Position numbers and translations under genes: made by a program. A stretch of DNA of 8,475 bases from a virus (lineage: Duplodnaviria > Heunggongvirae > Uroviricota > Caudoviricetes), in the IMG/VR virus record IMGVR_UViG_2698536301_000009, one strand, 5' to 3'. The notes under the pieces are model-generated. The model saw only the letters and a program-made list of their open reading frames with translations. It did no database searches and was not told where the DNA came from. Each line of letters opens with the position of its first letter. Within the stretch, counting starts at the first letter, position 1. Positions 2,652 through 5,216 of the stretch are shown one piece after another.

Positions 2652-4549
2652 TCATCCTCTCCGGATAAGGCACGGGCGTAATCTGCCAGTGTTTTCTTGT
2701 TGGTTGCTGCACCATCCTCTTCCTGCAGGCTCGCCAGCAGTGCACTGAGATCCAGCTGCCAGCGGGAAATACTGATGCGCAGCGCCGCCAGCGCATAAAC
2801 GAAGCAGTCGAGCGCCTCATTGCGTCGCTTTTTGCTGTCCCACAGTATTTTTTTCCTGCCATCCACCCATTTTTCGACCTGCTCTTCAGCAGTCAGCTGC
2901 TGCGCTTCGGTCAGATCAAAAATATCCGGGTTATTCGGGAAGTGAACGGCACCGGGAAGCGGTTCATCCCCTTCCGGCGTCAGTGTGAAGCGGTTATAAA
3001 TCTGCTCTTTCGCGGTATCCGTACCGATTTCGGTAAGGTAAACCCCGTTTTTGTTTCGCTTACGTGGCATGCTGGCCACCGGCTTTCCGTAGACGGATGC
3101 CCCTTTAATGGGGATCACCCGGAACAGCCCATGTTTTTTCGAGCGTTCATACACAATGGTCGGGTCAATCCCGCCAGTATCCCAGCAGATACGGGATACC
3201 GACATTTCTGCACCATTCCGGCGGGTATAGGTTTTATTGATGGCCTCATCCACACGCAGCAGCGTCTGTTCATCGTCGTGGCGACCCATAATAATCTGCC
3301 GGTCAATCAGCCAGCTTTCCTCACCCGGCCCCCATCCCCATACGCGCATTTCGTAGCGGTCCAGCTGGGAGTCGATACCGGCGGTCAGGTAAGCCACACG
3401 GTCAGGAACGGGCGCTGAATAATGCTCTTTCCGCTCTGCCATCACTTCAGCATCCGGACGTTCGCCAATTTTCGCCTCCCACGTCTCACCGAGCGTGGTG
3501 TTTACGAAGGTTTTACGTTTTCCCGTATCCCCTTTCGTTTTCATCCAGTCTTTGACAATCTGCACCCAGGTGGTGAACGGGCTGTACGCTGTCCAGATGT
3601 GAAAGGTCACACTGTCAGGTGGCTCAATCTCTTCACCGGATGACGAAAACCAGAGAATGCCATCACGGGTCCAGATCCCGGTCTTTTCGCAGATATAACG
3701 GGCATCAGTAAAGTCCAGCTCCTGCTGGCGGATGACGCAGGCATTATGCTCGCAGAGATAAAACACGCTGGAGGGGTCATCCGGCGTCCATTTGAGGCCA
3801 AACGGCGTCTCTTTGTCGCCAAATTTAAGATACTGCTCCTCCCCGCAATGCGGGCAGGCAACATGAAAACGCATAAAATGCGGGGATTCACTGGCTGCAC
3901 GCTCAATCTGACAGGTGCCTCTCACTTTGGGCGTGGAGCCACGGATGGACTTTGGCCAGACCGAGCCTTCAATACGCTTATCGCCCAGGAACGTTGGAGA
4001 GCCTTCCTGTTCAATATCCTCATCAAAGGCAGCAAGTTCATCATACCCCGCCACATCCACTGACTTTTCACGGTAGTTTTTTGCCGCTTTACCGCCCAGG
4101 CACCAGAAGCCACGCCCATTGGTGAAACGCTTCATGGTGAGCGTGTTATCCCGGTGCTTTTTGCCATACCACGGGGCCAGCGCCAGCAGCGACGGAATAT
4201 CACGAATAGTCGGCTCAACGTGGGTTTTCATAAAGTTCTCGGCATCACCATCCGTCGGCAACCAGATAAGGGTGTTGCGCTGCTTATGCTCTATGAAGTA
4301 GGCATAAACACCCAGCAGCATTTTGGAATAACCGACACGGGCAGACTTCACCACATACCAGCTCCTGCTGGCGGATGACGCAGGCATTATGCTCGCAGAG
4401 ATAAAACACGCTGGAGGGGTCATCCGGCGTCCATTTGAGGCCAAACGGCGTCTCTTTGTCGCCAAATTTAAGATACTGCTCCTCCCCGCAATGCGGGCAG
4501 GCAACATGAAAACGCATAAAATGCGGGGATTCACTGGCTGCACGCTCAA
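2648..4549 (-). CDS. A: Terminase large subunit, C-terminal fragment (gpA residues about 73-641 preceded by about 64 out-of-frame residues); no sequence evidence that it is translated
   Basis: 633-aa ORF in the track. Its first ~64 residues ([11 protein letters not shown]...ASRSW) are an out-of-frame reading of copy 2, and the same peptide recurs in ORF 3607..3906. From [12 protein letters not shown] onward it is gpA-like. The track start corresponds to a TTG codon, not ATG, and I see no clear ribosome-binding site. Confidence 0.5.
3715..4357. repeat. Tandem direct repeat, copy 1 (643 bp), inside the terminase large-subunit gene
   Basis: Bases 3715-4356 align to 4358-4999 at a constant offset of 643 (e.g. 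ccggcgtccatttgaggcca at 3781 and again at 4424). About 14 mismatches counted by eye, roughly 98% identity. Confidence 0.9.
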
Positions 4550-5216
4550 TCTGACAGGTGCCTCTCACTTTGGGCGTGGAGCCACGGATGGACTTTGGCC
4601 AGACCGAGCCTTCAATACGTTTGTCGCCAAGGAACGTCGGAGAGCCTTCCTGTTCAATATCCTCATCAAAGGCAGCAAGTTCATCATAACCCGCCACATC
4701 CACTGACTTTTCACGGTAGTTTTTTGCCGCTTTACCGCCCAGGCACCAGAAGCCACGACCATTGGAAAAACGCTTCATAGTGAGCGTGTTATCCCGGTGC
4801 TTTTTGCCATACCACGGAGCCAGCGCCAGCAGCGACGGAATATCGCGGATGGTCGGCTCAACGTGGGTTTTCATAAAGTTCTCGGCATCACCATCCGTCG
4901 GCAACCAGATAAGGGTGTTGCGCTGCTTATGCTCTATAAAGTAGGCATAAACACCCAGCAGCATTTTGGAATAACCGACACGGGCAGACTTCACCACATT
5001 CACCTCACGGATGTAGTCGCTGCCCATCGCATTCATGATGGCCCGCTGAAAGGGCAGTGTTTCCCAGCGCCCTTCCTGGTATGCGGATTCTTTCGGGAGA
5101 TAGTAATTAGCATCCGCCCATTCAACGGCGGTCTGTGGCTCCGGCCTGAACAGTGAGCGAAGCCCGGCGCGGACAAAATGCCGCAGCCTGTTAACCTGAC
5201 TGTTCGATATATTCAC
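4284..5216 (-). CDS. A: Terminase large subunit, N-terminal fragment (about 286 gpA residues plus 24 out-of-frame residues)
   Basis: 310-aa ORF in the track. Residues 1 to about 286 match gpA, including the putative Walker A segment [11 protein letters not shown]; the tail [24 protein letters not shown] is frameshift read-through into copy 1. Confidence 0.7.
   Translation of the reverse strand: MNISNSQVNRLRHFVRAGLRSLFRPEPQTAVEWADANYYLPKESAYQEGRWETLPFQRAIMNAMGSDYIREVNVVKSARVGYSKMLLGVYAYFIEHKQRNTLIWLPTDGDAENFMKTHVEPTIRDIPSLLALAPWYGKKHRDNTLTMKRFSNGRGFWCLGGKAAKNYREKSVDVAGYDELAAFDEDIEQEGSPTFLGDKRIEGSVWPKSIRGSTPKVRGTCQIERAASESPHFMRFHVACPHCGEEQYLKFGDKETPFGLKWTPDDPSSVFYLCEHNACVIRQQELVCGEVCPCRLFQNAAGCLCLLHRA
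4358..5000. repeat. Tandem direct repeat, copy 2 (643 bp), inside the terminase large-subunit gene
   Basis: Same alignment as copy 1. The junction lies at about 4357/4358 (…caccacat-a-ccagctcctgctgg…), with possible cca microhomology. Confidence 0.9.

Follow-up and report, generated by a model that had tools for sequence, protein, structure and literature searches.

False duplications separated by assembly gaps have been described previously (Ko et al. 2022, PMC9516828). Joins made from read pairs yield gaps of N, and false joins can come from greedy scaffolders and from gap fillers (PMC5320598); where scaffolded contigs overlap, the term negative gap is used (PMC8849508). In the negative-gap or 'heterotype' false duplications (PMC9516828), adjacent near-identical segments carrying different alleles lie on both sides of a gap, and false gene fragments are annotated there. 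The locus examined here, which lies in a stretch of viral DNA of 8,475 nucleotides (hereafter the window), shows the same arrangement, but differs from those cases in two respects: the two alleles belong to paralogous prophages of a haploid bacterium rather than to diploid haplotypes, and its gap is a single N that was turned into a base during window preparation. Judged from the assembled records, the 643-bp 'duplication' in the terminase large-subunit gene (terL) of the window is almost certainly a scaffolding artefact, namely a false duplication of the negative-gap type.

For the gene content, the described systems to compare are the lambda gpA module (gpA of 641 aa; gene order Nu1-A-W-B-C) and the DLP12-type cryptic prophage (essD-rrrD-Rz ... 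nohD). The results showed that the window is the left part of a cryptic lambdoid prophage of the DLP12 type, comprising the lysis cassette, cos, Nu1, A, W, B, and C, into which the scaffold has interleaved sequence from a second prophage of the STEC type. The lysis cassette, YlcI/YnfO, DUF1398, and nohD are shared with DLP12-type prophages (relatives so annotated show 99-100% identity), while this lineage differs in keeping the A-W-B-C-D head genes and in having an IS66-family insertion in the holin gene.

Gene order and reading frames of the terminase region

The head genes follow the lambda-like order, all on the minus strand, with Nu1, terL, W, the portal gene, and C towards the left end of the window. 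Thousands of E. coli prophages, as well as lambda, match the region at 98.6-99.3% identity. The terminase region contains the following features:

5191-5736, minus strand: Nu1 (nohD), terminase small subunit, 181 aa
4284-5216, minus strand: artefactual 310-aa ORF, in which 24 out-of-frame codons follow terL codons 1-286; annotated as a gene in CYFA01000056.1 (3260-4192 of L022)
2648-4549, minus strand: second terL frame
2648-4321, minus strand: artefactual 557-aa 'phage terminase large subunit' CTY99061.1, covering terL codons 85-641, with the Pfam domains GpA_ATPase and GpA_nuclease
2445-2651, minus strand: head-tail joining protein W, 68 aa
847-2448, minus strand: portal protein B, 533 aa

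An earlier, sequence-only reading of this DNA had described terL as split into a 310-aa ORF and a downstream-frame ORF by repeat copies spanning gpA residues 73-286, including a putative Walker A segment. These coordinates agree with ours, and the arithmetic behind the frame change (643 = 3 x 214 + 1) is correct. The same reading expected 641 codons without the duplication; our computation, in which either copy was removed, gave exactly this number. Merging the 642-bp overlap described below in either way thus yields a 641-codon terL, whose ORF is intact.

This merged terL is like lambda gpA in its 641 codons, its gene order, and its GpA_ATPase and GpA_nuclease domains, with a nucleotide identity of about 98.6% to lambda A; as in lambda-type gpA genes, a product of about 641 aa with both domains is encoded between Nu1 and W. 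Here, the domain evidence comes from precomputed Pfam matches of the 557-aa product and of relatives with 641 aa, and the length is that after merging. There is no functional difference between lambda gpA and the terL of the window; the split gene exists in the scaffold only.

The 557-aa product CTY99061.1 was found by exact-sequence look-up, and the contigs encoding it include CYFA01000056.1; the 310-aa ORF had no exact match among public products. A 568-aa terL variant (P0003) was also followed, but it led only to unrelated contigs with 97.7% nucleotide identity and their own N-terminal terL lesions. In several unrelated metagenome and isolate contigs (L016-L018, L019, and L020), which were retrieved via exact C-terminal terL products, the terL call begins at codon 74 or 85, which points to real or assembly-derived lesions within the first ~85 codons; L019 shows a seeming 4-bp shift in terL, and L020 has a 100-N gap. 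Upstream of Nu1, a 25-nt inverted repeat (5761-5817, 84% complementary) was observed, which we take to be the R2/R1 Nu1-binding elements of lambda cosB, an ordinary component of this module.

Contig structure of the source record

The entire record CYFA01000056.1 (8475 bp; E. coli draft GCA_001284345.1), read as its reverse complement, is identical to the window except for two letters: the A at 426 and the A at 4357 of the window are both N in the record. These two Ns show that CYFA01000056.1 is a scaffold, in which three short-read contigs (1-425, 427-4356, and 4358-8475) are joined by single-N gaps. Literature searches found no mention of CYFA01 or GCA_001284345. The parts of the scaffold are as follows:

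1-425: contig a, part of the head protease/scaffold gene C (S49 peptidase, minus strand), ending at the N; 100.000% identical to the gap-free L027
426: gap placeholder, N in CYFA01000056.1 and A in the window, standing for 55 missing bases of gene C
427-4356: contig b, with part of C, portal B, W, and the C-terminal 569 terL codons; mostly the STEC-type allele, with a DLP12-type patch at 3383-3848
3715-4356, minus strand: 'copy 1', terL codons 73-286 at the 642-bp end of contig b; 13/13 informative sites in 3977-4295 are STEC-type
4357: gap placeholder, N in the record and A in the window, the extra base that turns 642 into 643 and shifts the frame
around 4357: copy junction, which reads CTTCACCACAT[N]CCAGCTCCTG in the scaffold, with ...CTTCACCACAT on one side and CCAGCTCCTGCTGG... 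on the other
4358-4999, minus strand: 'copy 2', terL codons 73-286 as the opening 642 bp of contig c; every informative site is DLP12-type
4358-8475: contig c, with the N-terminal part of terL, Nu1/nohD, the cos region, the YlcI/YnfO and DUF1398 genes, Rz, lysozyme rrrD, the truncated holin, and an IS66-family end; 100.000% identical to L027 (CYAF01000042.1) over 4118 bp including the IS junction
8411-8475, plus strand: ISEc23-like element of the IS66 family, left end, inserted into the holin gene essD with the junction at 8410/8411

Self-comparison of the window showed that 3715-4356 is directly repeated at 4358-4999 with a period of 643, far above chance. The true repeat unit, however, is not 643 bp but 642 bp (214 codons, in frame). 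The two copies share 97.8% identity; an exact stretch of 262 bp (3715-3976) is common to both, and the 14 internal mismatches all lie between 3977 and 4295. Base 4357 is 'A', whereas 'T' stands both at 5000, the corresponding position, and at 3714, immediately ahead of the repeat; every one of the relatives has T at both positions equivalent to the flanks of 4357, and base 4357 matches none of them. These data show that the 643-bp apparent repeat was made when the N was written as A during window preparation. Therefore, the two adjacent 643-bp copies (3715-4357 and 4358-5000) reported earlier are present as text, but the unit is one base shorter, the copies are not identical, and 4357 is an unsequenced position.

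The gap character lies exactly between the copies, each of which is a contig end, and the end of contig b and the start of contig c fall within the same 642 bp of terL. A genuine tandem duplication would be expected to have a contiguous junction; the number of sequenced bases joining the two copies is zero. An unmerged overlap of 642 bp plus one placeholder makes 643, hence the apparent frameshift. The other placeholder has a similar effect on gene C: in L003, L027, and other relatives, 55 bp lie between the flanks of position 426, compared with one base in the window. The apparent clean 54-bp in-frame deletion in gene C is thus unreal, being a 55-bp gap written as one N.

The right end of the window provides a marker for related assemblies. 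The window ends 65 bp into the IS66-family element, and L027 has the full IS at the same junction; contigs stopping just inside an IS are typical of short-read assembly. Through this insertion in essD, a unique fusion ORF of 51 aa has arisen (8278-8433, minus strand); it is encoded by 23 public contigs. The insertion is missing from all 5,426 complete RefSeq E. coli genomes, making it a useful lineage marker; the exact essD-IS66 junction had no match in GTDB representative genomes or JGI metagenome contigs. L027, which contains no Ns and has the same junction, is collinear with the window and single-copy, and encodes a 641-aa terL; against it, 55 bp separate contigs a and b, and contigs b and c overlap by 642 bp. 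The arrangement of L028-L030 is as in L027, and all four of these independent same-lineage contigs have the IS66-essD junction, one copy of the segment, and a 641-aa terL. Merging the overlap of the scaffold therefore reproduces the structure of a gap-free relative.

The database comparison also returned only a single copy. With a 1901-bp query, every best match listed spans 1258 bp, which corresponds to one copy. Neither the 5,426 complete E. coli genomes nor the 50,697 phage records contain the copy junction, the segment being single-copy among the matches listed, and the junction with N at its centre had no exact match in IMG/VR contigs. A 100-bp junction probe was never matched as a whole; its halves map to the two ends of one 642-bp segment, with the junction base uncovered. 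These results leave the central claim of the sequence-only reading, that a tandem duplication breaks terL and stops packaging, unsupported, since the contigs end at an N gap and the gap-free sisters have one copy and a 641-codon terL. A terL scaffold fault recurs at this locus: in L031 (CYGP01000061.1), which belongs to the same accession series, two single-N joins (N at 3621 and 5136 in window orientation) connect three overlapping terL contigs into a false triplication, with gene calls of 422, 64, and 1055 aa instead of a 641-aa terL.

Two prophage alleles and the origin of the overlap

The two copies are identical along a DLP12-type stretch, after which each follows a different pre-existing allele. 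The portal protein of the window is exactly that of STEC-type lambdoid prophages, and at the nucleotide level, positions 1-426 and most of 427-4356 are 99.6-100% identical to these prophages, in contrast to 94.7% for 4358-5592. When contig b is followed along its sites, it is STEC-type as far as ~3380, DLP12-type at 13 consecutive informative sites (3383-3848), and then STEC-type again in 3977-4295; from 4358 onward, the sequence is DLP12-type throughout. Comparison with L027 revealed 50 differing sites in contig b, at 49 of which it has the STEC-type base, while one (4046, C) is private to CYFA01000056.1. Against complete genomes, 427-4356 reached at best 99.1-99.3% identity to any of them, while 4358-5700 is 100.0% identical to many; copy 2 is likewise 100% identical to many E. 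coli genomes and to L027. L010, the STEC-type prophage of a genome from this lineage, has no DLP12-type patch at 3383-3848. The patch arose either through chimeric assembly over a collapsed repeat or through strain-specific gene conversion between the two prophages.

Both prophages are found in the same-lineage genome GCA_035792335.1, the STEC-type one on contig L010 and the DLP12-type one, which has the IS66 junction, on contig L029; terL encodes 641 aa in both. The head genes of the two lambdoid prophages of this lineage are ~98-99% identical, and they provide a source of near-identical repeat copies for an inexact overlap. The isolate of CYFA01000056.1 itself probably carries both prophages, as suggested by the two alleles in its scaffold.

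A false duplication at the scaffold gap would then arise as follows. Read pairs would have linked contig b to contig c, and the overlap would have been inexact because contig b had run onto the allele of the other prophage. The scaffolder may have left this inexact overlap unmerged and written one N as a minimal gap. The real genome would hold one copy and an intact 641-codon terL in each prophage. The overlap has 14 mismatches because the end of contig b has the STEC-type allele, while contig c carries the DLP12-type allele.

A question raised by the two alleles is whether they could instead record a real event. An illegitimate, out-of-register exchange between the STEC-type and DLP12-type prophages, joining terL codon 286 of one prophage to codon 73 of the other, with an N left by the assembler, would also give copies with different parental alleles, as expected of an inter-prophage exchange. 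However, there is no sequence across the junction, although a novel junction would be unique and easily assembled from short reads. The contigs were evidently linked in this order by read pairs, yet a sister that is collinear and single-copy matches contigs a and c at 100% identity. In addition, kilobases at 98-99% identity make in-register homologous recombination far likelier than a microhomology-free join. A broken terL would cost nothing to a DLP12-type prophage that is already defective; nevertheless, the structure is absent from the 5,426 complete genomes, and the same kind of N-joined overlap occurs elsewhere in the accession series (L031). We therefore consider a real tandem duplication of this origin very unlikely. 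Formally, an N gap does not fix the adjacency of contigs b and c; that it hides a real out-of-register junction, by which illegitimate recombination between co-resident lambdoid prophages gave this isolate a hybrid, partly duplicated terL, is more improbable still.

An older real duplication in a decaying prophage, with the 14 differences as later mutations, has next to no chance of being correct. The copies do differ by 2.2% and lie in a prophage remnant, but a duplication should be identical at birth or differ by random later mutations, whereas 13 of the 14 differences are the pre-existing STEC-type allele in one copy and the DLP12-type allele in the other, clustered after the 262-bp identical stretch. 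Thirteen of the 14 are also synonymous (the sole amino-acid change is S151T), which is unexpected for the neutral decay of a frameshifted gene, and the same-lineage contigs with the shared IS66 insertion have no duplication. Taken as a whole, the differences between the copies are allelic variation rather than post-duplication decay. Slippage at microhomology (at most 1 nt is present), a de Bruijn graph path error (no k-mer is common to the two sides of the junction), and a natural, non-templated origin of the 'A' at the two junctions (excluded by the N in the record) were rejected.

State of the prophage and meaning of the artefact

Downstream of gene D in the sister contigs L027 and L028, only 91 aa remain of the major capsid gene E, and an integrase and an AlpA-type gene of another element come next; therefore, the DLP12-type prophage of this lineage is a remnant without tail genes. 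Whatever the state of terL, the prophage is defective, because the holin gene is interrupted by the IS66-family element and E is truncated in the sister contigs. The earlier suggestion of a defective prophage, a rearrangement, or an artefact was thus right about the artefact, and also about the defect, but the causes of the latter are not those proposed: they are the IS66-interrupted holin gene and the truncated E.

Overall, the 643-bp repeat is in all probability not a real feature and would have no biological significance. An N silently written as A can give rise to phantom duplications, deletions, and frameshifts; in sequence scans, gap characters should be masked or treated as breaks. Two artefactual products, the 310-aa ORF and the 557-aa CTY99061.1, stand in the public record, and at least one sister record of the accession series is equally faulty. 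Near-identical, co-resident lambdoid prophages are a predictable hotspot of such scaffold errors in short-read E. coli drafts.
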